A stretch of DNA of 32,949 nucleotides from Desulfobacterales bacterium (GTDB lineage: Bacteria; Desulfobacterota; Desulfobacteria; Desulfobacterales; JAHEIW01): the NCBI GenBank assembly GCA_037388985.1, contig JARRJQ010000059.1, positions 1 to 32,949 of the forward strand, written 5' to 3'. This document shows positions 16,313-32,949 of the stretch, one piece after another. The first letter of the stretch is position 1. The number at the start of each line of letters is the position of its first letter. The notes below the pieces were generated by a model. The model saw only the letters and a list, made by a program, of their open reading frames with translations, did no database searches and had not been told where the DNA came from. The translations under genes and the position numbers were made by a program.

Positions 16313-16479
16313 AAATACGAAATCCGAATATCGAAATTCGAAACAATCTAAAATGAACAAAATTCAAATGACCAAAACTTGATCATTTTTACGCGTAACA
16401 AACGACCTCTGTCTTTTGGGGCTTTGCAAATTCGGATTTAGAATTTGTTTCGGATTTCGGATTTCGAACTTCGGATTTG
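16313..16479. repeat. MITE/REP-like element bounded by inverted arrays of CGAAAT/CGGATTT heptamer-type repeats
   Basis: Left arm AAATACGAAATCCGAATATCGAAATTCGAAACAATCTAAA (16313-16352). Right arm TTTAGAATTTGTTTCGGATTTCGGATTTCGAACTTCGGATTTG (about 16437-16479). The interior shares CATTTGAATTT...TTGTTTCG with the element at 31830-31959, in the opposite orientation. Confidence 0.6.
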
Positions 16480-16541
16480 ATTTTTCAATTAATTTGATTC
16501 GTATCGCAAACAGGCATTTTAATTGTAAAGAGCCTTGATTC

Positions 16542-20561: not shown

Positions 20562-21077
20562 TCATGCTTTATCATTTTGCTGATTCCAGGGCCGAAGCCG
20601 AGGGATCCAGCGGGGCACATGGGCTTTATATTTACGGTAGCTATCGCCGAATCTTTTTTCCAGACCCTTTTCCTCGATAAGGGGAAAGTAGATTGAGTTA
20701 CCCATAAAAAAGATTACCATCCACAATGATATGGGCCAGGATTGAAACAGCATGGCTTCGGCCAGGAGCATGAGCACAGCGCCGGTAATCATCGGGTTTC
20801 TCACATGGCGGTAAGGGCCCCGAATGACCAGTTTTTTGGGGGGATCCCACGGAGCGGGGGTGCCATCGCCAAAATTCACAAACAATTTCACTGTCCAGAC
20901 AGCCAGTCCCAGGCCGGCACCAGCCGGCAAAAGCGCCAGCCAGAATAAAACCTGATGCGGTGTTAAAAGCTGATAAGAAAAATTTGAGTTATCGGCGATG
21001 GCTAAAATAATTGCCGGCACTAAAACGAGCGCTGTTCCGGGTAAAATGATGATGGTTTTAACAACTCTTCGGTTCAT
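20562..21077 (-). CDS. Isoprenylcysteine carboxyl / phospholipid methyltransferase-family membrane protein
   Basis: Multi-TM protein with LVIRGPYRHVRNPMITGAVLMLL and EEKGLEKRFGDSYRKYKAHVPRWIP, typical of the ICMT/PEMT family. Confidence 0.75.
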   Translation of the reverse strand: MNRRVVKTIIILPGTALVLVPAIILAIADNSNFSYQLLTPHQVLFWLALLPAGAGLGLAVWTVKLFVNFGDGTPAPWDPPKKLVIRGPYRHVRNPMITGAVLMLLAEAMLFQSWPISLWMVIFFMGNSIYFPLIEEKGLEKRFGDSYRKYKAHVPRWIPRLRPWNQQNDKA

Positions 21078-21123
21078 ATCGAGTTACGTCCCTCAGTCCA
21101 GTAGAACAACTGCGATGCCCGAT

Positions 21124-21615
21124 TTAAATTTTTTTAAATGCTTCGATTGTATCGGTTATTTGATCCAGATGATTTTCCAGATGCCTCAGATAATCTACCA
21201 TTAAATCGAAAAGCGTAACACTGGTTTGTGCACCAGATTCCCAGACATGCATAAGGCAGGTTGGATCTACCGAGCGGATGATATGGGCCAATTGGTTATT
21301 GAAATGACGCCACAGGCCTAATAAATCTTCCCATCTTCTATTCTGGTAGTTTTGTATTCTGACCCAGTGGATGTTGTCCTGTCCGTAGTCAGGGAAGTTG
21401 AGATGTTTCACCAGCTGAAGACGCACAAAGCGCTGGTGGTTGTTGGAGGCCGAATCGATCAAGTGACCGATGATTTCTTTGGCTGACCAGGCGTGTTCAG
21501 ATGGGCGAAATGTCAATGTTTTATCAGGCAAGCGATGCCAGCGCTCAACCGCGGCCTTGACCTGCTGTTCGATTTTGTTTGCAACATTATTGAGTTTGCC
21601 AATTTTCTGATTCAT
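21124..21615 (-). CDS. DinB-family protein
   Basis: WSAKEIIGHLIDSASNNHQRFVR and the C-terminal histidines DYLRHLENHLDQI fit the DinB four-helix metal-binding family. Confidence 0.8.
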   Translation of the reverse strand: MNQKIGKLNNVANKIEQQVKAAVERWHRLPDKTLTFRPSEHAWSAKEIIGHLIDSASNNHQRFVRLQLVKHLNFPDYGQDNIHWVRIQNYQNRRWEDLLGLWRHFNNQLAHIIRSVDPTCLMHVWESGAQTSVTLFDLMVDYLRHLENHLDQITDTIEAFKKI

Positions 21616-21803
21616 ACCTAACTCCTTTACCCTCGGCGCTGCATAACAAAGCCAGAAGTAATTTCACGAAAATCTACCGTAAAACTCAGGGCGATTTTAA
21701 AATTCTGCGGGTATCAAAAGCAAGCAAAAATTCCGATGATGCCTGCACTGTTCAACTCATCAGTCTTAACTAAAGAAAAATATCTTTCTTCTTAAAACAT
21801 TGC

Positions 21804-21835
21804 TTGACATCTGTACTTTGTATACCGTATACAAA
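21804..21835 (+). promoter_or_regulatory. Promoter TTGACA-N18-TATACA overlapped by the palindrome TTTGTATAC-C-GTATACAAA
   Basis: TTGACA at 21804-21809, palindrome at 21817-21835, TATACA at 21828-21833. The preceding context TTGCTTGACA is identical to the site at 10907-10916. It lies about 90 nt upstream of the CoA-transferase start. Confidence 0.55.
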
Positions 21836-21924
21836 ATTGAATTCACACCTTATTTTGTCGATGATTCTGAAGCAAAAGACCTCACAATCTTTAACCCCCA
21901 ACTTTGATGCATATGGAGAGCCAC

Positions 21925-23115
21925 ATGGATTTTTTCAACGACCTCACCGTGCTTTCCCTGGAACAGGCGACTGTGCTGCCATATTTAACCTATCGACTGG
22001 CGCATGATGGCATGAATGTCATTCGGCTGGAACATCCCGTTTACGGGGATCCGAATCGATTTATCGGTGAAAATGTCCTCAATGAAAAACGGATGAACGC
22101 CTATTTTTTGTGTATCAATGCAGGTAAACAAGCGTTAACTTTAAATCTTGCTGAAGATGAGGGAGGCAAGATTTTTCGTTCTTTGATCAAAGAGCTTAAT
22201 GTGGACATCTTCGCAACCAATCAGCTGCCCAAAAATTACCAGAAACTGGGAATCGATTACGACAGTCTCAAGGCTTTGCGGCCGGACATCATCTGGCTGG
22301 GAGTAACGGGTTTCGGTCCCGACAGCAATGAAGCAGCCTACGACCCGATATTGCAGGCCCGATCCGGTTTGATGGAGCTGACTGGTGAAGCTGATGGAGA
22401 TCCTCAGATTATGGGCATCCCCTTGCCGGATATGGGCACCAGCGAGCATGCTTATGGTTTGCTGATGAAAGCCCTTTATAAACGTAAGGTCACCGGGGAA
22501 GGCAGCTGCATTAATCTGGCGATGTTCGAATCCACGGTATCTTGGCTGACCGTGCCGATTACCTTAACCGGCAGTTTCGGCAAAAGGATCAGCCGCCGGG
22601 GCAATACGCACGAATTTTTTGCGCCGGTCTCTGTCTATAAGACGCAAAACGGGTTTGTTTATCTGGCGGTTGGCAACGATCGTCAATGGAAAGCAATTGT
22701 ATCCCAGAAAATATTTAAAATCCTGGACAAGCAAGCGTATGAAAAAAATGAGGGCCGCATAAAAGATGTTAAAAATTTAAACCAGGCGATCAATGAAATT
22801 ACACGAAATCACAATTCCGAGGATCTAATCGAATTGTTCACCGCGATTACGGTTCCTATCAGCAAAATTCAAGCTGTCAACGAAGTTATCAAAGATCCGT
22901 TGGTTAAACGCAGGCTGTTGTTCGCCGAGGATCCAGTGACCGGCATGCGCATTACGCTGGCACCACCACCGAATATGACACCATTTCTTGAACGATCCAA
23001 TCGCATGCTTTCTTTCCCACCGCGATTCGGAGAACACAATGCAAAAATATACGGCAGCCGGCTGGGATATTCTGCTGATGATCTTGTCCGCTTGAAAGAA
23101 AATAGCATTATTTAA
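21925..23115 (+). CDS. Family III (CaiB/BaiF/Frc-type) CoA-transferase
   Basis: MDFFNDLTVLSLEQATVLPYLTYRLAHDGMNVIRLEHPVYGDPNR... and the active-site Asp region GIPLPDMGTSEHAYGLLMKAL. The start is uncertain: TTG 21904, ATG 21907, ATG 21913 and ATG 21925 are all in frame. 21925 is chosen because GGAG (21914-21917) precedes it. Confidence 0.85.
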   Translation: MDFFNDLTVLSLEQATVLPYLTYRLAHDGMNVIRLEHPVYGDPNRFIGENVLNEKRMNAYFLCINAGKQALTLNLAEDEGGKIFRSLIKELNVDIFATNQLPKNYQKLGIDYDSLKALRPDIIWLGVTGFGPDSNEAAYDPILQARSGLMELTGEADGDPQIMGIPLPDMGTSEHAYGLLMKALYKRKVTGEGSCINLAMFESTVSWLTVPITLTGSFGKRISRRGNTHEFFAPVSVYKTQNGFVYLAVGNDRQWKAIVSQKIFKILDKQAYEKNEGRIKDVKNLNQAINEITRNHNSEDLIELFTAITVPISKIQAVNEVIKDPLVKRRLLFAEDPVTGMRITLAPPPNMTPFLERSNRMLSFPPRFGEHNAKIYGSRLGYSADDLVRLKENSII

Positions 23116-23147
23116 GCCATGATTTAATTGAATTTAAGGCAGTTATT

Positions 23148-23753
23148 ATGAAAAAAAGGGCCTCGTTAAATGATCTTGATTTTGGGCCGCTTCAGGCCTT
23201 TCAAGAGCGAAAATCCTTAGGTGAGCATGTTTTTGAGAGCCTAAAACAGGCGATTATCAGAGGCAAAATATCCGCTAATGAATGGCTGGTCGAAAGTCAC
23301 ATTGCTGAAACCCTTGGAATCAGCCGGACACCCGTACGCGAGGCTATTCACAAACTTGAACGCGAAGGGCTCATCGAGCGACAACCTCGTGGCGGGTTTA
23401 CCGTGCTAGGGCTGAATCGAAATGACATCGAAGAAACTTTCGGCCTTCGTAGTTTACTGGAGGGCTATGCTGCAAGGCTCGCCGCCGTTAAACATAAACC
23501 GTTCGAACTGAAATCATTGGAGAAGAAAAGTGATCAAATTTATCGATATAGAGAGATGATTCTTAAAGAGCAAGAATTTGCCTCGACCAGCAATTTGGAC
23601 CACAAAAAGATGTTGAAATATATTCGGAAGCGGGATGCTAAAGGTGCAGAGCGAGCAGTAAAGGATCATATTTTAAGGGGGCAGGAAATGGTTTTGAAAG
23701 AATATGACAAACAACGATTGGATCAAGCCGAGCAAGTATTGAGGAACGATTGA
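23148..23753 (+). CDS. GntR-family transcriptional regulator (FadR/FCD-like C-terminal domain)
   Basis: Winged-HTH segment LVESHIAETLGISRTPVREAIHKLEREGLIE, followed by an all-helical C-terminal domain. Its stop (23751-23753) abuts the ATG of the next gene at 23755. Confidence 0.85.
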   Translation: MKKRASLNDLDFGPLQAFQERKSLGEHVFESLKQAIIRGKISANEWLVESHIAETLGISRTPVREAIHKLEREGLIERQPRGGFTVLGLNRNDIEETFGLRSLLEGYAARLAAVKHKPFELKSLEKKSDQIYRYREMILKEQEFASTSNLDHKKMLKYIRKRDAKGAERAVKDHILRGQEMVLKEYDKQRLDQAEQVLRND

Positions 23754-23754
23754 A

Positions 23755-24150
23755 ATGGCGGAAAAGAAAATAAAAATATTGATCGGTAAACCCGGGCTGG
23801 ACGGGCATGATCGCGGAGCCAAAGTAATCGCTCTAGCTTTGAGGGATGCCGGCATGGAAGTTATTTATACAGGGCTGCACCAGACAGTTGAGCAGATTGT
23901 TAAAGCCGCTATGCAGGAAGCGGTTGATATTGTCGGATTGAGCATCATGTCCGGCGCTCATCTTCCGATCTGCCGCAAGATTTTACAGATGATGAAAAGA
24001 GAAGGCATTCAAGAAATCCCGGTTGTGGTCGGCGGGGTCATTCCCAAACAGGATATTCCCAAGTTGAAGAAAGTGGGAATCGCCGCAGTTTTTCCCGGTG
24101 GAACGGCTTTTGATGAAATCGTTAGCGGCATCAAAAAAGTCGTTAAGTAA
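23755..24150 (+). CDS. B12-binding small subunit of an acyl-CoA mutase
   Basis: IGKPGLDGHDRGAKVIALALRDAGMEVIY (DxHxxG cobalamin motif), GLSIMSGAH, and VVVGGVIP. Confidence 0.9.
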   Translation: MAEKKIKILIGKPGLDGHDRGAKVIALALRDAGMEVIYTGLHQTVEQIVKAAMQEAVDIVGLSIMSGAHLPICRKILQMMKREGIQEIPVVVGGVIPKQDIPKLKKVGIAAVFPGGTAFDEIVSGIKKVVK

Positions 24151-24154
24151 ATAC

Positions 24155-24271
24155 AAAATGCCTAAAATTGAGGAATCCTGTCCATTTTAGTAAAGTTAAT
24201 AAAAAGAATGGAGCTTCGCGACACCATAACTTTAGGCACTTTAGCTCATTTTAGTTCATTTTAGGCATTTT
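24155..24271. repeat. 14-bp inverted repeat pair enclosing ~10-bp-phased CAYTTTAG repeats, in the spacer between the mutase subunits
   Basis: AAAATGCCTAAAAT (24155-24168) and its exact reverse complement ATTTTAGGCATTTT (24258-24271). CACTTTAG/CATTTTAG/CATTTTAG/CATTTTAA begin at 24237, 24247, 24257 and 24266, with a further CATTTTAG at 24183. Confidence 0.5.
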
Positions 24272-24301
24272 AATTTTTAGAGCTTTTTTTAAGGAGCAAA
24301 C

Positions 24302-25936
24302 ATGGGAGTAGCAAAATACGTTAAAGATGAAAAAGACGCCATCAAAGAGGTTATCTATCAATCCGGAATCAAGGTAAAGCCGGTTTATACCCCTGAAGAT
24401 CTCGAAAAAATCGGCTTTGATTATGAAAATGATTTAGGCGATCCCGGGGAATATCCGTTCACCCGCAACTTGCATCCACAAGGGTATCGATCCCGTGCTT
24501 GGACGACTCGCCAGTATACGGGTTTTGGCACCCCTCAGGAAACCAATGAGCGATTCAAGTTAATGATTTCGCACGGACAAACGGGCCTGAATGTGGCCTT
24601 CGATTTACCGACTCAGATGGGATATGATTCGGATACTCCCGAAGCTTTGGGGGAAGTCGGCCGGGTGGGTATGGCCGTCGATTCACTGCGCGATTTTGAA
24701 ATTGCATTCCAAGACATTCCGCTGGATCGCATCGGGTCGGGACTAACGATCAATGCGGTTGCATCGATTATGCTGGCAATGTATCAGACCGTGGCGGAAA
24801 AATTCGGTTACCCGAAAGAAAGGATCAGCGCGACACCGCAAAACGACATTCTTAAAGAAATGATCGGACGCGGGGCCTGGATATTTCCGGTAGAGCATGC
24901 TGTGAGGCTGGTGGGTGACAGCATTGAATATTCGGTTAAAGAGCTTCCGCGATGCAATCCGGTCAGCATCTGCGGCTATCACATCCGGGAATCCGGAGCG
25001 AACCCGGCTCAGGAAATTGCCTGCGCTTTCGAAATCGCCAAAACCTATATCGATAATGTCAAAGCCAGGGGGATGGCAGTCGAAGATTTCGTCGGAAGTT
25101 TTTCTTTTAACCTCAATGTATTCGGCAACCTGAGGGAACAAATCGCTAAATTTCGGGCCGCTCGCAAGCTCTGGGCGAAAATGCTCAAAGAAGAATATGG
25201 CGTTCAGGATAAAAAAATGCTCTTTCTGAGTGGACTTTTCGGTGGTGGCGGCAGCGGATTGACCAAAAGTCAGCCGGAAAACAACATCATGCGTGGCGCG
25301 TTTTATGCCCTGGGAGCTGCGCTGAGCGGTGCACAGACCATCGCCCTTTGTTCTATTGACGAAGCTTACACAATTCCGACACCCCGGGCAGCCTTGCTGT
25401 CTTTACGCACTCTGGAAATCATCATGGATGAGGTCGGGTTGCGCGACACGGTGGATCCGCTGGCAGGTTCCTACTTTATTGAGACTCTGACCAAACAGAT
25501 GGAAGGAAAGATCCTGGATGAAATGAAACAAATTCAGCAGGTCGGGGGTATGGTTCACGCCGTTGCTACCGGCTTTATCCAGCGAAAAGTTGCCCAACAG
25601 GCCTATGAATACGAAAAAGGGCTTCAAAAAGGCGAGTACATAAAAGTCGGCGTCAACAAATATACTGATGGGACAGAAGATCAAACCGATGTCGAACTTC
25701 ACGAATACAATGATCAATGGGCCGATAAACAGGTTGCGGGCCTAAAAGAGCTTCGTAAAACCCGTGATAATCGCGAAGTGTCACGGTTGCTGAAAGAATT
25801 GGAAAAGACAGCACGCAGCCAAAAAAATGTAATGCCTATTCTGGCGGATTGTTGCCGAGCATATGCAACAGTGGGAGAAATGGCCGGCGTGTTTCGAAAT
25901 GCCTTCGGCGAATGGCAAGAACCCAGCATTTTCTGA
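24302..25936 (+). CDS. Acyl-CoA mutase large (catalytic) subunit, divergent member of the methylmalonyl-CoA mutase family
   Basis: YPFTRNLHPQGYRSRAWTTRQYTGFGT, GQTGLNVAFDLPTQMGYDSD, PQNDILKEMIGRGAWIFP, ICGYHIRESGA, and C-terminal ATVGEMAGVF. RBS AAGGAG lies upstream of the ATG at 24302. Confidence 0.9.
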   Translation: MGVAKYVKDEKDAIKEVIYQSGIKVKPVYTPEDLEKIGFDYENDLGDPGEYPFTRNLHPQGYRSRAWTTRQYTGFGTPQETNERFKLMISHGQTGLNVAFDLPTQMGYDSDTPEALGEVGRVGMAVDSLRDFEIAFQDIPLDRIGSGLTINAVASIMLAMYQTVAEKFGYPKERISATPQNDILKEMIGRGAWIFPVEHAVRLVGDSIEYSVKELPRCNPVSICGYHIRESGANPAQEIACAFEIAKTYIDNVKARGMAVEDFVGSFSFNLNVFGNLREQIAKFRAARKLWAKMLKEEYGVQDKKMLFLSGLFGGGGSGLTKSQPENNIMRGAFYALGAALSGAQTIALCSIDEAYTIPTPRAALLSLRTLEIIMDEVGLRDTVDPLAGSYFIETLTKQMEGKILDEMKQIQQVGGMVHAVATGFIQRKVAQQAYEYEKGLQKGEYIKVGVNKYTDGTEDQTDVELHEYNDQWADKQVAGLKELRKTRDNREVSRLLKELEKTARSQKNVMPILADCCRAYATVGEMAGVFRNAFGEWQEPSIF

Positions 25937-25941
25937 AGCGG

Positions 25942-26367
25942 GAATTCGGAATGCGGAATGCGGAATATAGAAGGCGGAATACGGAAGGAAGAATAATGCC
26001 TGATAAAGATTTGAAAGAAAGAACAAAGAAGTTCGCCCTAAAAATAATAAAACTGGCTGCATCTCCTCCTCGTACAAGGGAAGCTGATATTATCGGCAGA
26101 CAATTGTTAAAAGCAGGAACCTCCGTTGGTGCTAATTATAGAGAAGCCAACCGCGCCAGGTCAAAAGCAGAATTTAGAGCCAAAATTGGCATAGTTGAGC
26201 AAGAATCGGATGAATCCCTTTATTGGTTAGAATTATTGAAAGAGTCCGGAATTACAAAAGGCAGACTTTTAGAGGAACTATTGATAGAAGCTGACGAATT
26301 AGTAGCAATATTCACAACAATCGGCAAACAATCAAAATTATATTTCCGCATTCCGAGTTCCGAATTC
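25942..26367. mobile_element. Inverted-repeat-bounded cassette carrying a four-helix-bundle gene (intervening-sequence-like insertion)
   Basis: IR-L is GAATTCGGAATGCGGAATGCGGAA (25942-25965). IR-R is TTCCGCATTCCGAGTTCCGAATTC (26344-26367). They are reverse complements at 22 of 24 positions. IR-L is the start of a run of about seven CGGAATG-type heptamers (25947-25995) that also supplies the RBS. Confidence 0.5.
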
Positions 26368-26415
26368 ATGAGAGGAGGAGCGATTGAGCGACGGATCCTA
26401 TCGTCTGGGTTGTGA
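25996..26415 (+). CDS. Four-helix-bundle protein (TIGR02436; 23S rRNA intervening-sequence protein / Avd-like family)
   Basis: MPDKDLKERTKKFALKIIKL...IGRQLLKAGTSVGANYREANRARSKAEF..KIGIVEQESDESLYWLELL is characteristic of this family. The track ORF (from 25849) overlaps the mutase gene. The ATG at 25996 follows GGAAGGA. The 3' tail (RIPSSEF...) is encoded by the repeat and overlaps the hyuA start. Confidence 0.8.
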   Translation: MPDKDLKERTKKFALKIIKLAASPPRTREADIIGRQLLKAGTSVGANYREANRARSKAEFRAKIGIVEQESDESLYWLELLKESGITKGRLLEELLIEADELVAIFTTIGKQSKLYFRIPSSEFMRGGAIERRILSSGL

Positions 26416-28498
26416 TATCGGCGGAACTTTTACGGATTTTGTTCTGGTCAATGATGAAACCGGAGAATTTCAGATCAATAAATGTCTGACCACTCCCAAA
26501 GACCCGTCGGATGCGGTCGAAGAGGGCATCCGGGGCTTGCTGGAACGCCTTCCTGGATTCGTTCCCCAAATAGATGAATTTATTCATGGCACGACCCTGG
26601 TGATCAACGCTATTATCGAAAGAAAGGGAGCCAAAACCGGATTGATCACCACCAGAGGATTTCGGGATGTGCTGGAGCTTGGCCGGGAGATTCGATATGA
26701 TGCTTATGATATTTTTGCCGAATACCCTAAACCCCTCGTTCCCCGATCACTTCGCACAGAGGTATTCGAACGGATCACCGCTGACGGGCGCGTGATTGTG
26801 CAGCTGAAACCTGAAGAGGTCAGCGAGGTGCTCAATGAAATTCGTCAATTGGGAATCGAATCTTTGGCGGTCTGCCTGATTCACTCTTACGAGAATCCGA
26901 TACACGAAATGCAGATAAAGGAAATCGTGAACAAAGAAGCCCCTGGCCTATCCTTGTCGATTTCCTACGAGGTGCTCCCCCAGATCCGTGAATATGAAAG
27001 AAGCTGCACCACGGCAACCAATGCGTATGTCAAACCGATTACCGCCAGGTATCTGGCCAAGCTTTCAGCCAGATTGGAATCCCTTGGTTTTAAGGGCAAG
27101 CTTTTTATCATGCTTTCCAGCGGTGGAATCACATCCGTAGAAACCGCACGCGAATATCCGGTCAGAATCATAGAATCAGGACCCACAGCCGCAGTGATTG
27201 CTTCACAGCATTACGGCAAGATGTTTCAGATCAAAGATATGTTTTGCTTCGACATGGGAGGTACTACCGCAAAATCCTGCCTGATCCAGAAAGGGCAGGC
27301 AGGGCTGGTATCCACCTTTGAAGTCGGCCGTATTCAACGCTTCAAGAAAGGTAGTGGTCTGCCTATCCAGGTGCCGGTGGTTGATTTGATGGAAATTGGT
27401 GCCGGTGGGGGTAGCATTGCCCGCATGAGCAAAATGGGTCTCTTGCAGGTCGGCCCTGAAAGCGCCGGAGCCGACCCTGGGCCGGCCTGTTACGGTCGCG
27501 GCGGTAAGGATCCAACCGTGACGGATGCGGATTTGATGCTGGGATATTTGGATCCGAATTATTTTCTCGGTGGGAGCATGCCGCTGAACCGGGCGGCGGC
27601 CGAACAAGCGATTGAAAAAAAGCTCGCTCAACCTCTTGGAACCTCTGCAACTGAAGCCGCTTTCGGCATTCATGATCTGATCAATGAGACCATGGCGGCA
27701 GCGGCTAAAACCCATATTGCCGAAAAAGGCGGCAATCCGAATATCGTCACCATTTCTGCATTTGGGGGGGCAGGGCCGGTGCATGCATATGGGCTGGCCA
27801 AAAAAATCGGAGCACCCCGCATCCTCGTTCCGCCGCTTGCCGGAGTCGGCTCCGCACTTGGTTTTTTTACCGCACCAGTGGCATTTGACCTGAGTCGAAG
27901 TCATCGGGTCAGTTTGGAAGAGGCCGATTTCGAGCAGATCGAAGGGTTGTTTAAAGAACTGGAGCAGGAAGGGGCTGCCGTTCTGCAGGCAGCGAAGAAA
28001 AATCAGAAAATAAAATTTGAGCGCACCTTGATGATGCGTTTTGTGGGCCAAGGAGCCGAAACCGATCTTGCCCTTAAAAACAGACCATTTGATCAATTGG
28101 AAAAAGGGCAGGTTAGAAAATTGTTTGATGAAGTTTATCAGAAGCTCTATGGTCGGACTTATGCGGAAACGCCGGTTGAATTCGTCACCTTTAAAGTCCG
28201 CGCCAGTTTGCCGCAACGACCTTTCCAGATTCCACCGTTAAAAAATGCAGGGAAAACCATTGCCGATTGCAAAAAAGGCGAACGCCTGGCCTTTTCTCTT
28301 GTAAAAAGACAATACATGCCTTTTGCGGTATACGATCGTTTTAGTCTTTTTCCCGGTGCAACGCTCGGCGGCCCGGCCATTATCGAAGAAAAAGAGTCAA
28401 CGATTATTATGGGAGAAGACGCCAGTGCATCGGTTGATGAATATGGATTTGTTTGGATCAATTTGAATGGCGAAGTCGGAATGGGGAATGCGGAATGA
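26384..28498 (+). CDS. hyuA: Hydantoinase A / oxoprolinase A-family ATP-dependent subunit
   Basis: YRLGCDIGGTFTDFVL, GTTLVINAIIERKGAKTGLITTRGFRDVLE, FDMGGTTAKS, and GADPGPACYGRGG. TTG start at 26384 with AGGAGG (26373-26378) 5 nt upstream. Confidence 0.9.
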   Translation: MSDGSYRLGCDIGGTFTDFVLVNDETGEFQINKCLTTPKDPSDAVEEGIRGLLERLPGFVPQIDEFIHGTTLVINAIIERKGAKTGLITTRGFRDVLELGREIRYDAYDIFAEYPKPLVPRSLRTEVFERITADGRVIVQLKPEEVSEVLNEIRQLGIESLAVCLIHSYENPIHEMQIKEIVNKEAPGLSLSISYEVLPQIREYERSCTTATNAYVKPITARYLAKLSARLESLGFKGKLFIMLSSGGITSVETAREYPVRIIESGPTAAVIASQHYGKMFQIKDMFCFDMGGTTAKSCLIQKGQAGLVSTFEVGRIQRFKKGSGLPIQVPVVDLMEIGAGGGSIARMSKMGLLQVGPESAGADPGPACYGRGGKDPTVTDADLMLGYLDPNYFLGGSMPLNRAAAEQAIEKKLAQPLGTSATEAAFGIHDLINETMAAAAKTHIAEKGGNPNIVTISAFGGAGPVHAYGLAKKIGAPRILVPPLAGVGSALGFFTAPVAFDLSRSHRVSLEEADFEQIEGLFKELEQEGAAVLQAAKKNQKIKFERTLMMRFVGQGAETDLALKNRPFDQLEKGQVRKLFDEVYQKLYGRTYAETPVEFVTFKVRASLPQRPFQIPPLKNAGKTIADCKKGERLAFSLVKRQYMPFAVYDRFSLFPGATLGGPAIIEEKESTIIMGEDASASVDEYGFVWINLNGEVGMGNAE

Positions 28499-28534
28499 TT
28501 TGAATGGGGAAGGTGAGATGTGGAATGCGGAATA
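28477..28534. repeat. Array of degenerate CGGAATG heptamers spanning the hyuA stop codon
   Basis: CGGAATG GGGAATG CGGAATG ... GGGAAGG TGAGATG TGGAATG CGGAATA. The hyuA stop TGA (28496-28498) lies inside a unit. An inverted, related array lies at 28628-28664. Confidence 0.55.
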
Positions 28535-28597
28535 ATTTAAAAATCCTTTTCATTTACCCAAAGTTTATAGGTTTAATTCTAAGGAGACTTATAAAGT

Positions 28598-30376
28598 ATG
28601 CAAAAAAACGGTAACGGCAAGGATGATCCGAATTCCGGTTTCCGAATTTCGAATTCACGCTTCGATCCGATAACGCTGGAAATTTTTTGGCGCCGTTTAA
28701 TCTCTATCGTTGATGAAGCGGATGCCTCTGTGGCCAGAACCGCCTTTTCAAGTCTCTTGCGCGATGCGCATGACTATACCTGTATGTTTACCGACAGCCG
28801 GGGACAGGAACTGGTTCAGGGAACTTTCTGTACGCCGGGTCAGGCCGGAGCCATGGCTTTGGGCATTAAAAACATCATTCGTTCGATTCCATTAGAACAG
28901 TATCGGCCGGGAGACGTATTTATTGTCAATGACCCCTGGTTGCTGGCCGGCCATCTAAACGATGTCTGCGTGTTGAGTCCTATATTTTATAAAGAAAAAC
29001 CGATTGCCTTTACCGCCTGCGTCTTTCATCATTCAGACATCGGGGGGCGGGTGGCTTCCGATAACCGGCAGGTCTACGAAGAAGGGCTGTTCATCCCGCC
29101 GATTAAACTGTATGATGCCGGTGTGCTGAATGAGTCGGTATTGAGAATGATACGCTGGAATGTCAGGACCCCCGAAGAAGTGACGGGGGATATCCGCTCC
29201 CAGGTGGCCGCTAACCACGTATGCTCGCAAAAAGTCATCGAAATGCTGGCAGACGAGGGCCTGGATACTCTGGATGATCTGGCGGAAGAAATTATTGAGC
29301 GAACTGAAAAGAGCATGCGAACTGCCATCGCTAAAATACCTGATGGGATATACCCTTATGAAGGCCTTATTGAAGGAGCCGGCAAGCGAAAAGATATTTC
29401 CATCAAATTAAGCGTGCAGGTCAAGGGCAGCGATATCCAGATCGATTTTGAAGGAACATCTCCTCAGGTCGATTGGGGTGGGAATGTCGTCTATAATTTC
29501 ACATATGCGTATGTTTTTATGGCGATTAAGAGTGCGTTTGATCCGGATATTCCCATCAATGAAGGCGCTATTCGGCCCGTAAAAATGAGTGCACCAGAAG
29601 GCAGCGTGGTCAATTGCAGATTTCCGGCCGCGGTTGCCGCCCGCATGCAGATCGGCCATTTTATGACCGAGATGGTGTTTAAAGCTTTATCAGGAGCAAC
29701 ACCGGATAACATCATTGCCGAAAGTGGGGGAACACCGGCTCAAACCAATATTTTTTACGGAAAACGCTTCAACGGAAAGCCATGGTTGACCATGATTATT
29801 CGGGGCGGCGGAATGGGCGCCAGCAGTAAAATGGATGGGCACCATTGCGCCATCTTTCCGGCCAACGGCGCCAACACGCCTGTGGAAATTTTTGAAAGCG
29901 ATACCCCCTTGATTGTACAGGAGCGCAGTCTGTTATGCGATTCTGGCGGTCCGGGCAAAAAGCGCGGCGGACTCGGAAGAAAATTTGTCATCCGGATCCC
30001 GGACGATGAATTTGCTCCTCTGCCACCGACGACAATTGCCATTCAGGCTGGCAGATTTCGATACCCTCCCGGAGGTTTGTTCAAAGGTGGCAGCGGAAAC
30101 AAAGCTCAATTCCTTGTCAATACTGACGAGGGGGATCCCAGCGGATTGACCCTTTGTGAATCCGGAGATGTCATTCATTTTCACAGTGCCGGCGGAGGCG
30201 GATTCGGCGATCCGCTGGAACGAGAGCCGGCAGCTGTTGAACAGGATGTTATCAACGAATATGTGAGTATTGAACAAGCGCGGCGTCACTACGGTGTGGT
30301 CATCGATCCGCAAACGCTGAAAGTTGATTCGGGGAAAACTCAAAAGCTGCGCACATCGCGGAAGCAAAAAGGATAG
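28598..30376 (+). CDS. hyuB: Hydantoinase B / oxoprolinase B-family subunit
   Basis: DPITLEIFWRRLISIVDEA, RDAHDYTCMFTD, NDPWLLAGHLNDV, and GGGGFGDPLEREP. The N-terminal ~24 aa (MQKNGNGKDDPNSGFRISNSRF) precede the usual family N-terminus and are partly encoded by repeat sequence. Confidence 0.9.
   Translation: MQKNGNGKDDPNSGFRISNSRFDPITLEIFWRRLISIVDEADASVARTAFSSLLRDAHDYTCMFTDSRGQELVQGTFCTPGQAGAMALGIKNIIRSIPLEQYRPGDVFIVNDPWLLAGHLNDVCVLSPIFYKEKPIAFTACVFHHSDIGGRVASDNRQVYEEGLFIPPIKLYDAGVLNESVLRMIRWNVRTPEEVTGDIRSQVAANHVCSQKVIEMLADEGLDTLDDLAEEIIERTEKSMRTAIAKIPDGIYPYEGLIEGAGKRKDISIKLSVQVKGSDIQIDFEGTSPQVDWGGNVVYNFTYAYVFMAIKSAFDPDIPINEGAIRPVKMSAPEGSVVNCRFPAAVAARMQIGHFMTEMVFKALSGATPDNIIAESGGTPAQTNIFYGKRFNGKPWLTMIIRGGGMGASSKMDGHHCAIFPANGANTPVEIFESDTPLIVQERSLLCDSGGPGKKRGGLGRKFVIRIPDDEFAPLPPTTIAIQAGRFRYPPGGLFKGGSGNKAQFLVNTDEGDPSGLTLCESGDVIHFHSAGGGGFGDPLEREPAAVEQDVINEYVSIEQARRHYGVVIDPQTLKVDSGKTQKLRTSRKQKG
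28628..28664. repeat. Inverted heptamer array inside the 5' end of hyuB
   Basis: CCGAATTCCGGTTTCCGAATTTCGAATTCACGCTTCG. Its reverse complement reads CGAAGCG..CGAAATT CGGAAAC CGGAATT CGG, so it is an imperfect inverted partner of 28477-28534. Confidence 0.5.
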
Positions 30377-30473
30377 ATGTCGCCGGAGCCGTTTTAAATG
30401 AGTAGCCCTTGATTGAGCCAGCCCAATGGCAAAACGTTTAAACCATTTCAGAAGTTTTTGAGGGAGACAGATT

Positions 30474-31766
30474 ATGTCCCAAACCTTTATGCCGTCATTT
30501 CAAAATATGGATCAGCTCAAAGCACACCAGTTAAAAGGCCTTCAGTGGACAGTTAATCATGCCTATCAGGGCTCTCGTTTCTATCGGCAAAGTCTGGATG
30601 CTTCCGGCGTAAGACCAGACATGATCCGATCCCTGGAAGATATCCAGAGACTGCCCTTTACCAAAGCCGATGACCTGCGGGACGGGTATCCCTTTCCATT
30701 GTTATCAGTTCCTCAATCCCAGGTGGTGCGGATTCACGCTTCTTCAGGGACGACGGGTAAACGAAAGATCCTGTCCTATACGCAGAAAGATATCGATGAT
30801 TGGATTTATTTTTTTGCCCGCTGCTATGAAATGGCCGGTCTCACACGCGAAGACCGGGTACAGATTGCCGTAGGATATGGGATTTGGACTGCCGGCGCGG
30901 GATTTCAGCTTGGCTGTGAAAAATTCGGCGCCATGGCCGTTCCGGTCGGCCCCGGCAATGTGGACATGCAATGCCAGTTTCTGGTGGACTTGCAATCCAC
31001 TGCCATGTGCTGCACTGCATCGATGGGTCTATTGATGGCTGAAGAAGTCCAGCGCAGGGGTCTAAAGGATAAAATCACCCTTAAAAAAATGATTTTCGGT
31101 TCAGAACGCAGCAGTGATGCCATGCGCAAACGGATAAAAGATCTGTTAGGTCTGGAAGACATGTTCGACATTCCCGGTTTGACGGAGCTTTACGGACCGG
31201 GTACCGGACTGGATTGCTATAAGCATGAAGGCGTTCATTACTGGGCCGATTACTATATCATCGAAATTCTTGATCCGGCTACCCTCGAATCCGTGCCGGC
31301 AGGTGAAACCGGTGAAATGGTAGTCACAACCTTGTGTAAAGAGGCCGCTCCTTTGATCCGCTATCGCACCCGGGATCTGACGCGTTTGATCGATCATCCA
31401 TGTTCATGCGGCAATATTTTGCCGATGCACGACAGAATTTTGGGGCGGTCCGATGATATGATCATTTTCCGGGCCGTTAACATATACCCCGGGCAGATCG
31501 ATCAAGTGCTCTCAAGCGTTGCGGATGCCGGTTGTGAATACCAGATTCATCTGGATCGCAAAACAGATGGAAAAGATTACATGACTGTGCGGCTCGAATG
31601 CAGCGAAAAGTTCGATGCTTCCGGCAAAACTGAGCTGGCCAAAAAAGTCAGTCAAGAAATTAAGAATAAAGTTATGGTCAGTGCTCAAGTCGAAGTAGTG
31701 GATTACGGTTCGCTGCCAAGATCGGAAAGGAAGACGAAACGGTTTTTCGATAATCGACCTCAATAA
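30474..31766 (+). CDS. paaK: Phenylacetate-CoA ligase-like adenylate-forming enzyme (PaaK / F390 synthetase family)
   Basis: LPFTKADDLRDGYPFPLLSVP...VRIHASSGTTGKRKILSYTQKDIDDW, and RYRTRDLTR. 430 aa, the typical PaaK size. The actual substrate is unknown. Confidence 0.8.
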   Translation: MSQTFMPSFQNMDQLKAHQLKGLQWTVNHAYQGSRFYRQSLDASGVRPDMIRSLEDIQRLPFTKADDLRDGYPFPLLSVPQSQVVRIHASSGTTGKRKILSYTQKDIDDWIYFFARCYEMAGLTREDRVQIAVGYGIWTAGAGFQLGCEKFGAMAVPVGPGNVDMQCQFLVDLQSTAMCCTASMGLLMAEEVQRRGLKDKITLKKMIFGSERSSDAMRKRIKDLLGLEDMFDIPGLTELYGPGTGLDCYKHEGVHYWADYYIIEILDPATLESVPAGETGEMVVTTLCKEAAPLIRYRTRDLTRLIDHPCSCGNILPMHDRILGRSDDMIIFRAVNIYPGQIDQVLSSVADAGCEYQIHLDRKTDGKDYMTVRLECSEKFDASGKTELAKKVSQEIKNKVMVSAQVEVVDYGSLPRSERKTKRFFDNRPQ

Positions 31767-31829
31767 CGATTCTATGACTCTAGAATTAAATAATGACTTC
31801 GTCTGGACAAAGAGCGATAAATTACAAAT

Positions 31830-31959
31830 AAATTCGAAATTCGAATATCGAAACGCGAAACAAATCCGAATATCGAATGATTTAAATCCAAAAGTTCTGA
31901 GCATTTGAATTTAGAATTTTTGACATTGTTTCGTATTTCGAAATTCGTGCTTCGAATTT
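31830..31959. repeat. MITE/REP-like element bounded by inverted CGAAAT-type repeat arms
   Basis: Left arm AAATTCGAAATTCGAATATCGAAACGCGAAACAA (31830-31863). Right arm TTGTTTCGTATTTCGAAATTCGTGCTTCGAATTT (31927-31959). The interior is related to 16313-16479 in reverse orientation. Confidence 0.6.
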
Positions 31960-32049
31960 AACGGATTGGTAAAACTTTTGTTTAAAACAATCATAAATAT
32001 TTAAACTCGTGTTCACTTAGTATAGGAACAGAAGAAGGAGGATGTTGAG

Positions 32050-32949
32050 ATGTTGGAAAAAGCGTATATACCCTATGGAGGATACTACAGTTCGCCTTTT
32101 TGCCGCTGGCAGGGAAGTCTGGCCAATGAAAACGCAATTACCTTGGGAGCCGCCACCGCCAAACGTTGGATGGCTCACAAGAAATGGGATCCGAAAATAA
32201 TCGATTATCTCGTTTTCGGAATTACCATTCATCAGCCGCATGGTTTTTACGGAAGCACATGGGCGGCGGCTATGATGGGATGTGCAGATATTCCGGGAAT
32301 ACTCATCAGTCAAGCCTGCACCACCTCCACGACCTGCATCTGGCAGGCAAGCATGGGCGTTGAAACGGGCCTCTTTGAAAATTGCTTCTGCCTGATGACT
32401 GACCGCTGTTCAAACGGCCCGCACGCGATATGGCCAAACCCGCTGGGGCCCGGCGGCCAGGTTATCTATGAAGATTGGCTGATGGACAATTTCGGCAAAG
32501 ATCCCTGGGCCGGAGGGGCTATGATTCAAACTGCGGAAAATGTTGCCAAAGAAGCCGGCATCACGCGCAAACAGTGCGATGCGCTTACCCTGCGGCGGTA
32601 CCAGCAGTACCAGGATTCTTTGGCCGACGACCGTGCCTTTCAAAAGCGGTATATGTTTCCGGTGGAGATCGCGGTTTCGAAAATAAAGACTATCCTGGTG
32701 GAAGAAGACGAAGGCATCATCGAAAGCACTGCCGAAGGATTGGCCGGACTGAAACCGGTCATTCCCGAGGGTGTGCACACTTACGGAGCGCAATCGCATC
32801 CGGCTGACGGAAACTGCGCAGTGGCTGTCACAACCCGTGAAAAGGCGAGGCAGTTGAGTTCCGACCCGAATATCGAAATTCAGGTGATTTCTTACGGCTA
32901 TGCGCGGGCCAAAAAAGCTTTCATGGCGGCAGCGGTTTACCCCGCCGTG
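32050..32949 (+). CDS. Thiolase-family protein (acetyl-CoA C-acyltransferase-like); 3' end runs off the window
   Basis: Absent from the ORF track because it has no in-window stop. The ATG at 32050 is preceded by GAAGGAGGA (32034-32042). 300 uninterrupted codons: MLEKAYIPYGGYYSSPFCRWQGSLANENAITLGAATAKRW...ILISQACTTSTTCIWQA (nucleophile Cys context)...YGAQSHPADGNCAVAVTTREKA. Confidence 0.8.
   Translation, partial: MLEKAYIPYGGYYSSPFCRWQGSLANENAITLGAATAKRWMAHKKWDPKIIDYLVFGITIHQPHGFYGSTWAAAMMGCADIPGILISQACTTSTTCIWQASMGVETGLFENCFCLMTDRCSNGPHAIWPNPLGPGGQVIYEDWLMDNFGKDPWAGGAMIQTAENVAKEAGITRKQCDALTLRRYQQYQDSLADDRAFQKRYMFPVEIAVSKIKTILVEEDEGIIESTAEGLAGLKPVIPEGVHTYGAQSHPADGNCAVAVTTREKARQLSSDPNIEIQVISYGYARAKKAFMAAAVYPAV

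Follow-up and report, generated by a model that had tools for sequence, protein, structure and literature searches.

The window, by which we mean the whole 32,949-nt stretch of Desulfobacterales DNA analyzed here, contains a four-helix-bundle (4HB) gene that lies between inverted heptamer arrays at the junction of a mutase gene and a hyuA-like gene in a catabolic operon. Comparison with related genomes supported the view that cassettes of this type behave as mobile cassettes with no known mobility enzyme. In what follows, G000 denotes the genome holding the window, other G-numbers denote related genomes, and L-numbers denote loci or contigs of relatives.

Results

A discrete gene cassette at the mutase-hyuA junction

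The cassette was found to sit precisely between the mutase stop codon and the hyuA ribosome-binding site (RBS), in the orientation of the operon. The mutase gene (24302-25936, plus strand, as are all genes, arms and signals of this junction) encodes a methylmalonyl-CoA-mutase-type large subunit (PF01642, E 5.6e-172; TIGR00641), and the left arm of the cassette begins 5 nt beyond its TGA. This 24-nt arm, GAATTCGGAATGCGGAATGCGGAA (25942-25965), would form the 5' half of a stem and belongs to a tandem array of 6.6 GGAATGC units (25941-25986; Tandem Repeats Finder, period 7; a direct-repeat family) that decays toward the ORF. The right arm, TTCCGCATTCCGAGTTCCGAATTC (26344-26367, 24 nt), would form the 3' half and carries 3.4 GCATTCC-type units. 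An earlier note had described 24-bp inverted repeats around the gene, and we confirmed them at these coordinates: the arms are complementary at 22 of 24 positions (92%) and are spaced 378 nt apart. The hyuA RBS, GAGAGGAGGAG (26370-26380; 26370-26386 with the TTG start, read off the sequence), is located outside the stem, 3 nt past its end, and the hyuA-like gene itself (26384-28498) encodes a hydantoinase/oxoprolinase A-type subunit (PF01968, PF05378, PF19278). The cassette is ~430 bp long and the 4HB gene (25996-26415, 139 aa) is its sole ORF. An SD-like element, GGAAGGAAG (25983-25991), read off the sequence 5-13 nt ahead of the ATG, is built from the degenerate inner heptamers of the left array, as the same note had proposed; the orthologous cassette in L012 has AGGAGG at the matching position. 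The cassette is a discrete unit, bounded by the outermost edges of the arrays.

We then compared these features with chance expectation. The 18-mer GGAATGCGGAATGCGGAA occurred seven times in the window with up to three mismatches, where 0.05 occurrences were expected. When 600 random 320-nt segments were drawn from this genome, none had a flanking inverted repeat scoring 18, the value of the window cassette. We found no intrinsic terminator (a G+C-rich stem followed by a T run) at 25900-26420, where ATGAGAGGAGGAG comes after the right arm, and in the sense direction a promoter or terminator of the cassette's own was not above shuffle expectation. An Rfam scan of 21000-32949 returned no family, rRNA included, at E values up to 1. 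A transposon or MITE with terminal inverted repeats was considered and rejected, since no transposase or other movement enzyme was found for the cassette and there was no target-site duplication at its ends; the ends of the L110/L113 pair also lacked one, and no insertion motif was defined.

The window ORF crosses the right arm and enters hyuA by 32 nt. The earlier note had treated this frame, which runs over the hyuA RBS and TTG start, as part of the cassette's geometry. The frame is present but it is not part of the design. Codon 115 of the window ORF is TTA (26338-26340), while six relatives of the same type (L010, L204, L205, L207, L211 and L124) have TAA instead, right before the right arm; in L012, L206, L208 and L209 the ORF likewise closes with TAA right before the right arm, L012 being one residue longer. 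Since these ten relatives all carry TAA at codon 115 or adjacent to it, the read-through is a local, lineage-specific stop loss, and residues 115-139 are the tail that resulted from the TAA-to-TTA change.

The 4HB protein and the selection acting on the cassette

Profile searches bore out the assignment of the gene to the TIGR02436 type: residues 7-112 matched both PF05635 (E 3e-16, 60 bits; cut-off 33.8) and TIGR02436 (81.7 bits; cut-off 24). No Pfam domain besides PF05635 and no recognized catalytic motif was found in the protein. An AlphaFold model (pLDDT 93) placed helices at residues 3-21, 28-52, 57-84 and 90-115 and matched the fold of 2RLD (TM 0.82-0.88; phmmer E 3.8e-15) and 2GSC (TM 0.82). 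The Avd structures 4DWL and 8UB7 were also similar to the model (TM ~0.72), with a sequence identity of just 13-17%. Structures of 2RLD, 2GSC and Avd are all deposited as five-chain assemblies, and the 4HB protein most likely forms a pentameric ring like these solved relatives. The family motif GxxRxxxSxxxNxxE, as it appears in passages of PMC3936711, is represented by the core S43-x3-N47-x2-E50, with the R replaced by K39. N47, E50 and the G45-A51 block were invariant among 30 homologues, and S43 was conserved in at least 90%.

The dN/dS of the ORF was ~0.06 against orthologous cassettes and 0.04-0.09 wherever dS was measurable. By this measure, strong purifying selection maintains the 4HB ORF. 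Relative to L012, nucleotide identity was 80.6% for the ORF and 78.2% for hyuA. The right arm was kept in L010, L012, L204-L209 and L124 despite saturated synonymous sites, and the alignments thus establish that conservation of the arms far exceeds that of synonymous sites.

The structural similarity raises the possibility that the protein is an Avd-like accessory which brings a reverse transcriptase (RT) to a hairpin-bounded RNA, the unit then spreading through cDNA; a stem-bounded RNA would make a defined template. We give this almost no credence. A PF00078 search detected no RT in G000 or in 13 of the 25 related genomes, and one of the genomes lacking PF00078, G006, is a congener that is 97% complete and has six 4HB genes. 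The searched operon ORFs (21904-32949) contained no RT domain, there was no template or variable repeat near the cassette, and the low sequence identity also argues against such a role. Thus, of the relation to Avd and diversity-generating retroelements that had been suggested for this family, the structural likeness held, while a retroelement role is largely refuted by the absence of PF00078 from G000 and G006.

Filled, arms-only and bare alleles of the junction

We examined the mutase-hyuA junction in relatives for the empty sites that a mobile cassette should leave, and such sites were found in congeners. The junction was filled in the window and in about seven other loci or contigs, including L012 and L010. 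L011 had only 48 nt, consisting of window-type arms without an ORF, and L022 had a bare 12-nt spacer, AGGAG RBS included. In the filled and arms-only alleles the right arm was followed by an identical hyuA RBS block. Other hairpins also occupied this junction: GCGGATT-type hairpins in seven genomes and CGAAATY-type arrays in eight, of which five were ~305-315 nt long or cut by the contig end and three were partial. The junction states were scattered on the hyuA tree and were linked to flanking sequence over less than 90 nt. Since linkage does not extend further, this site alone does not separate allele shuffling from repeated insertion, and the polymorphism could reflect old alleles shuffled by recombination.

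The same cassette type at other junctions

Window-type cassettes (83-93% amino acid identity, same arms) occurred in at least two further gene junctions. Besides mutase-hyuA loci (L204, L205, L206 and L209), they were located at a coxM-like/coxS-like junction (L207, L208 and L211) and at a third site (L124). The closest pair of all, L208 and L209 (dS 0.24), is from different junctions. The coxM-coxS junction displayed a decay series, in which intact cassettes (L207, L208) are followed by the metagenome contig L211, whose ORF is half deleted from the 5' side and has an internal stop, and then by contig C346 of G000, an arms-only hairpin with a 43-nt loop. In G019, two 4HB copies were homologous from array to array over ~625 nt and not at all outside. 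Together with the empty and arms-only alleles, the further junctions and the cross-junction pair support the mobile-cassette reading of the earlier note. The comparisons demonstrate that, at the timescale of species within a genus, the unit has been gained, copied, gutted to arms-only hairpins and lost, and that ORF type and arm unit move jointly among unrelated gene junctions. Gene conversion between two long-resident copies, rather than new insertion, could also account for the cross-junction similarity.

Association of arms with 4HB genes

Across the 25 related genomes, 52 of 81 4HB genes (64%) had a flanking inverted-repeat score of at least 14, as against 2 of 600 random control segments (0.3%), indicating that the association of arms with 4HB genes is not due to chance. 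Sharing of arm 10-mers across contexts rose with protein identity, from 5% below 50% identity through 25% and 74% to 94% at 80% identity or more. A period of 7 was seen in 125 of 180 arms, with a median of 4.4 units per arm. All but one of 50 armed cassettes were co-directional with the upstream gene, and the left arm began a median of ~7 nt past the stop codon of that gene. One expectation, that every 4HB copy of the genome would be flanked by the same repeats, was not borne out in G000, where two other 4HB genes had different inverted arrays of their own and one had no arrays.

Heptamer arrays without an ORF

Arrays lacking an ORF were also identified in the window. At the preceding junction of the same operon, a hairpin (24155-24271) has the arms AAAATGCCTAAAAT and ATTTTAGGCATTTT (14/14 paired) around an 89-nt loop. 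Its unit family differs from that of the cassette, and its arm words flank 4HB genes elsewhere, in L082, L086 and L101. Direct GGAATG(C/G) arrays of the cassette-arm unit family (28460-28538, plus strand) span the hyuA stop and the hyuA-hyuB spacer. The junction of a paaK-like gene and a thiolase gene contains a hairpin of AAATTCG-type units with 35-nt arms and a 62-nt loop (31829-31960), and a hairpin of CGAAATY and TTTCGGA units with 31-nt arms and a 111-nt loop (16313-16485) lies amid two minus-strand genes. Genome-wide, G000 had 45 period-7 arrays versus 0-8 for periods 5, 6 and 8-11. Of the 19 heptamer units in its ORF-less arrays, 12 recurred in cassette arms of relatives, compared with 2.2 of 19 for shuffled units. 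GGAATGC arrays were present in all 25 related genomes and were commonest in genus g2 (64-240 hits), in whose fragmented genomes no GGAATGC-armed 4HB gene was seen among the loci examined. At the loci examined, the GGAATGC array count per genome does not track whether that genome has a 4HB gene with GGAATGC arms. Derivation of the ORF-less loops from full cassettes by internal deletion was rejected, as only the arms align, and no ORF remnant was recognizable in the loops of 24155-24271 and C346.

The presence of heptamer-type arrays at several operon junctions and at 16313-16485, the specific enrichment of period 7 and the occurrence of heptamer arrays without a 4HB gene in other bacteria (PMC4679880, PMC2700814) are what one would expect if the arrays were the genome's intercistronic, REP/BIME-like mRNA stabilizers or decouplers, with an ordinary 4HB gene tolerated in some loops. 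We consider this quite improbable. The bare 12-nt spacer works in the congener L022, and the hairpin is thus dispensable. Moreover, the arm unit is predictable from the ORF type over unrelated contexts, the homology of same-genome copies reaches from one array to the other, armed 4HB genes far exceed the controls, and arms are conserved where synonymous sites are saturated.

Predicted RNA stem and possible processing

When the full cassette was folded, the MFE and centroid structures were alike closed by the terminal stem. The energy of the whole-cassette fold was unexceptional relative to shuffled sequences (z -1.15), and only the terminal stem stood out. G000 encodes an RNase III (248 bits), and processing of the cassette stem by this enzyme is plausible. 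Among the mismatches in 52 arm pairs, 23 were G.U and 20 were A.C. This lack of an RNA-specific G.U excess does not indicate that pairing was selected in RNA over DNA.

A rival reading, with which the lack of a G.U excess over A.C agrees, is an element that acts at the level of DNA. Here the arrays would serve as single-stranded hairpins or cruciforms in replication, or as homology blocks, and the unit would spread into same-unit "landing pads" through strand switching or through homologous recombination, the RNA stem being a by-product. Several observations fit: the cassette ends exactly at its arrays with no target duplication, like elements that use hairpin ends; same-unit arms-only hairpins occur at the same junctions and elsewhere in the genome; the array repertoire overlaps that of the cassette arms; and linkage to the flanks is gone within 90 nt. 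On the other hand, the position of 49 of 50 armed cassettes, co-directional with and directly past the upstream stop, suggests that sense transcription is required. The ORF of L211 is being deleted from an arm inward, and thus at least some arms-only hairpins are remnants, not landing pads. In addition, at 20-50 nt the arms offer little length for recombination of the RecA type. On balance we think a purely DNA-level element unlikely, though it deserves more weight than host hairpins with a passenger gene.

Discussion

We regard it as probable that the armed 4HB cassette is an operon-transcribed, stem-bounded unit that is cut by an RNase III-type activity, encodes an arm-reading protein and is copied without a transposase or RT. 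The cassette would be transcribed within the operon mRNA, given that promoter and terminator signals inside it do not exceed chance expectation. In that mRNA, the arms are predicted to pair as a 22-of-24 stem around the ORF and to leave the hyuA RBS free. The stem would be the type of duplex that RNase III cuts in ORF-bearing 23S rRNA intervening sequences (IVS), and cleavage there would divide the operon mRNA in two at the junction. Judging from covariation and unit number, the 4HB protein may recognize the heptamer arrays that form the arms of its cassette, and through this recognition the unit may be maintained or copied. No transposase or reverse transcriptase would be needed for copying, which might most simply proceed by recombination, or by template switching, from one array to another of the same unit.

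We also put forward, tentatively and with more doubt than confidence, a broader reading in which 4HB cassettes represent the autonomous members of a very widespread class of elements and the ORF-less heptamer arrays, inverted or solitary, of intergenic spacers (STRR-like, in many phyla) are gutted remnants. A pentamer would read the arms of its own cassette, each subunit taking roughly one unit, and drive or protect copying between transcribed junctions, rRNA helices included, again with no transposase or RT. If this were true, it would provide the first function for both the S23p/IVS family and bacterial heptamer repeats. In this way the cassette would tie together, and open to testing, two old puzzles, the role of the "S23p" IVS proteins and the origin of bacterial intergenic heptanucleotide repeats. 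It also offers a clean natural series, since within one genus a single junction is filled, arms-only, bare or occupied by other hairpins, and a second junction adds a copied cassette, one copy with half its ORF deleted and a hairpin reduced to its arms. The gene-plus-hairpin unit persists under strong selection and appears to move with no recognized mobility enzyme. For annotation and operon biology, such inserts separate co-transcribed metabolic genes by an extended duplex, probably an RNase III target, and heptamer-hairpin inserts interrupt metagenome assemblies where they sit.

The layout of the cassette, in which inverted copies of a repeat enclose a small gene and gene-less copies are scattered elsewhere, resembles that of a REPtron. 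In a REPtron, one small RAYT gene is flanked by inverted short repeats that also occur dispersed and gene-less, with a repeat type for each gene type. RAYTs are HUH tyrosine transposases with known DNA-cleaving chemistry; the cassette protein is a four-helix bundle, and identity with a REPtron was rejected for this reason. The repeats also differ, being tandem heptamer arrays in the 4HB cassette and single palindromes in REP, and array counts do not follow the cognate 4HB gene. Avd, which is part of a ribonucleoprotein, shares with the cassette protein the four-helix-bundle fold and with 2RLD and 2GSC the five-chain assembly, whereas the cassette lacks the RT, template repeat and variable repeat. 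PF05635 genes wedged between neighboring genes of unrelated operons have a precedent in the 23S_rRNA_IVP genes located between cas genes, e.g. cmr3 and cmr2, in passages of Zhang et al. 2013 (PMC3936711). These were read as having a possible Cas-associated function, and flanking inverted arrays or cassette behavior are not mentioned in those passages.

The cassette arrays have much in common with intergenic heptamer repeats, namely the period of 7, 2-6 units, a location in spacers near start or stop codons, several unit families per genome and a patchy phylogeny. G-rich heptamers have reportedly been described in Xanthomonas and Nostoc. TAACTGA repeats occur in Beggiatoaceae, Cyanobacteria and Bacteroidetes (PMC4679880), and GGACCGG and MTYCTGA arrays in Geobacter metallireducens (PMC2700814). 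Both studies tied the arrays to no gene, and neither mentions four-helix-bundle or S23 proteins. In contrast, the cassette arrays are inverted pairs around one gene family, and ORF-less arrays in the present genomes can be traced to junctions and units of gene-bearing cassettes.

The closest parallel is the 23S rRNA IVS, to which the earlier note had likened the cassette. The IVS in helix 45 of Coxiella burnetii encodes "S23p" and has a 28-bp stem, GACAGAT heptamers and RNase III cleavage (PMC4990558); an ORF-bearing IVS is also known from Leptospira (Ralph and McClelland 1993, as cited in PMC4990558). The likeness holds in form. In both cases a PF05635-family ORF lies inside terminal inverted repeats with a stem of more than 20 bp, tandem heptamers are found just 5' of the ORF (GACAGAT in Coxiella, GGAATGC in the window cassette), and the unit measures ~430-490 nt, has no mobility enzyme and is patchily distributed, mobility having long been suspected. 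It does not extend to the site, which here is the intercistronic spacer of a protein-coding operon rather than an rRNA helix. RNase III excision has been demonstrated for the IVS and is predicted for the window cassette. For the Coxiella ORF, decay and a probable lack of translation have been reported (PMC4990558), whereas the window ORF is under strong selection. Finally, what sets window-type cassettes apart from the 23S IVS is that they display filled, arms-only and bare alleles, together with copying between junctions.

Anatomy of the window cassette

The four-helix-bundle (4HB) gene of the window and its inverted heptamer arms form a discrete gene-plus-arms unit with a selected ORF and conserved arms. 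The unit lies between hyuA and a mutase gene (24302-25936; PF01642) that ends with TGA. A left tandem array of 6.6 GGAATGC heptamers (25941-25986) starts 5 bases past this stop, and its beginning is the 24-nt left arm (25942-25965), which is complementary to the right arm (26344-26367) at 22 of 24 positions. Between the arms is the 4HB ORF (25996-26415), encoding 139 amino acids from an ATG preceded by the SD-like GGAAGGAAG. The hyuA RBS, GAGAGGAGGAG, follows 3 bases past the right arm and leads to a TTG start at 26384. The earlier note had described this layout of repeats, gene and hyuA RBS and start, and the sequence bore it out. A profile search matched both PF05635 and TIGR02436 to residues 7-112 of the ORF, well over the cut-offs. 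The inverted repeat is not due to chance; an 18-mer of the arms occurred 7 times in the window (0.05 expected), and none of 600 random 320-nt segments of the same genome equaled its flanking complementarity.

When the full cassette (25925-26400) was folded as RNA, a check proposed in the earlier note, the MFE and centroid structures alike had a long terminal stem closing it, with an unremarkable total fold energy (z -1.15). The cassette region gave no conspicuous match to Rfam families, terminators or sense promoters. A strong sigma-70-like match was seen in antisense within the ORF (26164-26135, minus strand; TTGACC, 18 nt, TATAAT; 11/12), which may be a chance match since the count of promoter-like sites in the region did not exceed the shuffle expectation.

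The ORF ended with TAA directly ahead of the right arm in 10 of 10 relatives of the window cassette type, and in six of them (L010, L204, L205, L207, L211 and L124) this TAA aligned exactly with a TTA in the window (26338-26340). A local stop loss therefore accounts for the 25-residue tail, which runs through the right arm and on into the hyuA gene. The frame noted earlier as crossing the right repeat and the hyuA start is thus real, but it is not a design feature.

The mutase-hyuA junction in related genomes

We took the spacer from mutase stop to hyuA start from each of the 34 of 61 related genomes that had a hyuA orthologue. An empty site, which the earlier note had proposed to look for in relatives, was found in a genome of the same genus (G006) as a bare 12-nt spacer, AGGAGAAGTTGA. 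In G003, also of the genus, the spacer was arms-only (48 nt, AGTGGGAATTCGGAATGCGGACTTCCGAATTCCTGAGAGGAGGAGTGA), made up of the arms and RBS seen in the window plus a loop of 7 nt, and lacked an ORF. G016 had the spacer filled with a 4HB orthologue, as did G017, where the contig end cut it, and a metagenome scan added four filled alleles (L204, L205, L206 and L209). Seven genomes of the genus carried GCGGATT inverted arrays around a ~100-nt loop, and eight carried CGAAATY arrays, some of them partial.

These states were dispersed across the hyuA tree and closest neighbors were unlike each other; L009 (GCGGATT arms) and L012 (filled) are only ~0.035 substitutions per site apart. Linkage of spacer type to flanking sequence was confined to the first 90 nt of hyuA. 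The filled allele is old. At the nucleotide level, the window ORF was 80.6% identical to that of L012, similar to the 78.2% of hyuA, with an ORF dS of 1.2 (near saturation) and a dN of 0.07, and the arms and the RBS block after them were still recognizably alike despite the near-saturated synonymous sites.

In the seven congeners with the GCGGATT/AATCCGC hairpin (L007, L009, L013, L015, L016, L019 and L025), the hairpin loop holds a GTG with an RBS, and the right array shares the reading frame of hyuA; it therefore seems that the heptamers are translated, extending the hyuA product at its N terminus (…NLQSAIRNPQS…). Their hyuA frames were 719-730 aa long, versus 697-708 in G003, G004, G005, G016 and G017.

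4HB cassettes across the family and beyond

The TIGR02436 profile found 2-9 copies per genome in 24 of 25 genomes; all genomes compared are fragmented MAGs with frequent contig breaks in arrays. Of 81 full-length copies retrieved together with flanking sequence, 52 had a flanking inverted repeat score of at least 14, a level reached by no shuffle and by 2 of 600 random genomic segments. Tandem arrays made up 180 of 196 arms, with a period of 7 in 125 of the 180 and of 9 in 26, and a median of 4.4 units per arm. Among 5' arms, 73 of 87 were G-rich; among 3' arms, 81 of 86 were C-rich. Nearly all armed cassettes (49 of 50) pointed the same way as the upstream gene, and 40 of 47 the same way as both neighbors, their left arm starting a median of ~7 nt past the upstream stop codon; this placement implies that the cassettes are transcribed in the sense direction from the host operon. 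Homologues of the window protein at 50-65% identity were mostly armed too, in Verrucomicrobiota, Bacteroidota, Acidobacteriota, Chloroflexota and others.

Arm units varied by copy (GGTGTCA, CAGAGGA, GGACTGA, GATTTTG, GTGTTTA, CTAAAATG and others). The homologues in the window's genome (G000), for which the earlier note had proposed to test whether each has the same repeats, do not share them: the copies on contigs C206 and C555 have their own, different arms, and the C28 copy (C28:15762-16082) belongs to a distinct subfamily without flanking inverted arrays (scores 6-11). Most of the family's genomes have orthologues of this unarmed subfamily (L002, L055, L056, L074, L078, L098, L102 and others), and the cassette-borne state is not universal among 4HB proteins. 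We compared armed pairs in different contexts, defined by no tblastx similarity in the ~600-nt flanks. The fraction of pairs with arm 10-mers in common rose from 5% at protein identities below 50% to 25% at 50-65%, 74% at 65-80% and 94% at 80% or more, showing that ORF type and arm unit co-vary.

Copying and decay of the cassette

The earlier note had proposed a mobile cassette as one of two readings, and our comparisons agree with it, showing that at two junctions the unit has been gained, lost and decayed, and that it has been copied between junctions. The window type recurred elsewhere at 83-93% amino-acid identity with GGAATGC/GGAAGTG arms, at a coxM-like/coxS-like junction in L207, L208 and L211 and ahead of an unrelated 194-aa gene in L124. 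The most similar pair of all was L208 (coxM-coxS) and L209 (mutase-hyuA), with a dS of 0.24 and three amino-acid differences; same-junction cassettes in other species ranged from a dS of 0.44 (L012 vs L204) up to saturation. With the closest pair spanning two junctions, the unit recently underwent copying, or conversion, from one to the other. Both contigs, from one metagenome (Ga0209536), begin within the cassette at an identical base and run on into different downstream genes; the assembler evidently broke them at a repeat common to two junctions of one population. In G019, two copies with 91% identity (L110 and L113) were homologous over ~625 nt, from outer array end to outer array end, with zero homology past the arrays and no target duplication seen.

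At the coxM-coxS junction the cassette was intact in L207 and L208, while in L211, a single metagenome contig, the first 38 codons were gone from the left arm inward and an internal stop was present. The same junction in G000 (C346:3940-4093, outside the window) had arms only, which form a GGAAGTT/GGAATGC hairpin (43-nt loop) immediately ahead of the coxS-like [2Fe-2S] subunit gene, and the contig terminates in a second copy of the arm. From this decay series it can be argued that ORF-less heptamer hairpins are, in at least some cases, cassettes that have been gutted. In G023 (C1:85600-85776), a GGAATGC-type array adjoins a partial 4HB frame (profile positions 2-55) that resembles one more copy in decay; the partial hyuA homologue of G023 lies ~5 kb away.

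Heptamer arrays without a gene

Period-7 arrays were specifically enriched in G000, with 45 versus 0-8 for periods 5, 6 and 8-11. ORF-less inverted arrays were found at several other window junctions (16313-16485, 24155-24271 and 31829-31960). The hairpin at 24155-24271, where the mutase gene follows the gene for the B12-binding subunit, has arms AAAATGCCTAAAAT and ATTTTAGGCATTTT, complementary at 14 of 14 positions around an 89-nt loop. Its arm words also flank 4HB genes of relatives L082, L086 and L101, at a different locus. Heptamer units of ORF-less arrays recurred in 4HB cassette arms of the other 24 genomes in 12 of 19 cases (2.2 when letter-shuffled). A simple relation in which a master gene predicts array number was not supported when arrays and genes were compared.

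GGAATG(C/G) arrays at 28460-28538 overlap the final codons and stop of hyuA, and related TTCCG words lie inside the first hyuB codons (28625-28660), so that repeat words add coding sequence on both sides of the hyuA-hyuB junction. A 34-nt CGGAATG/CGGAATT array in G000 (C214:4518-4551) sits inside a 470-codon frame on the minus strand that stays open; these heptamers lie either in coding sequence or at a junction that has fused.

Protein fold and putative transcript processing

An AlphaFold model of the window 4HB protein, built with 30 homologues as input, had four helices and a pLDDT of 93. Its closest structural matches were the two solved family members, 2RLD (TM 0.82-0.88) and 2GSC (0.82), followed by Avd, the accessory protein of diversity-generating retroelements (TM 0.72). 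A reverse-transcriptase (RT) route was not supported, since neither G000 nor G006 (97% complete, with six 4HB copies) had an RT. From the covariation, arm conservation, unit number and pentameric relatives, we infer that the 4HB protein recognizes its own heptamers.

In the Coxiella 23S rRNA intervening sequence (IVS), a 28-bp stem is cut by RNase III and heptamers lie upstream of the ORF (PMC4990558). With this precedent and an RNase III gene in G000, the mRNA stem of the cassette would probably be cut as well. Such a cut at the predicted stem would separate the two halves of the operon transcript and leave the hyuA RBS free. Arm mismatches did not support an RNA-specific pairing signature (23 G.U vs 20 A.C).

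Comparison with known systems

A literature search on family names and heptamer repeats found no description of 4HB genes that lie in protein-coding operons within inverted heptamer arrays and no report of 4HB cassette behavior. Intergenic heptamer arrays have been described without a gene link in PMC4679880 and PMC2700814, whose texts make no mention of the 4HB family, and in the abstract of PMC4692102. PF05635 genes have been observed between cas genes (PMC3936711). The closest described kind is the ORF-bearing rRNA IVS (PMC4990558).
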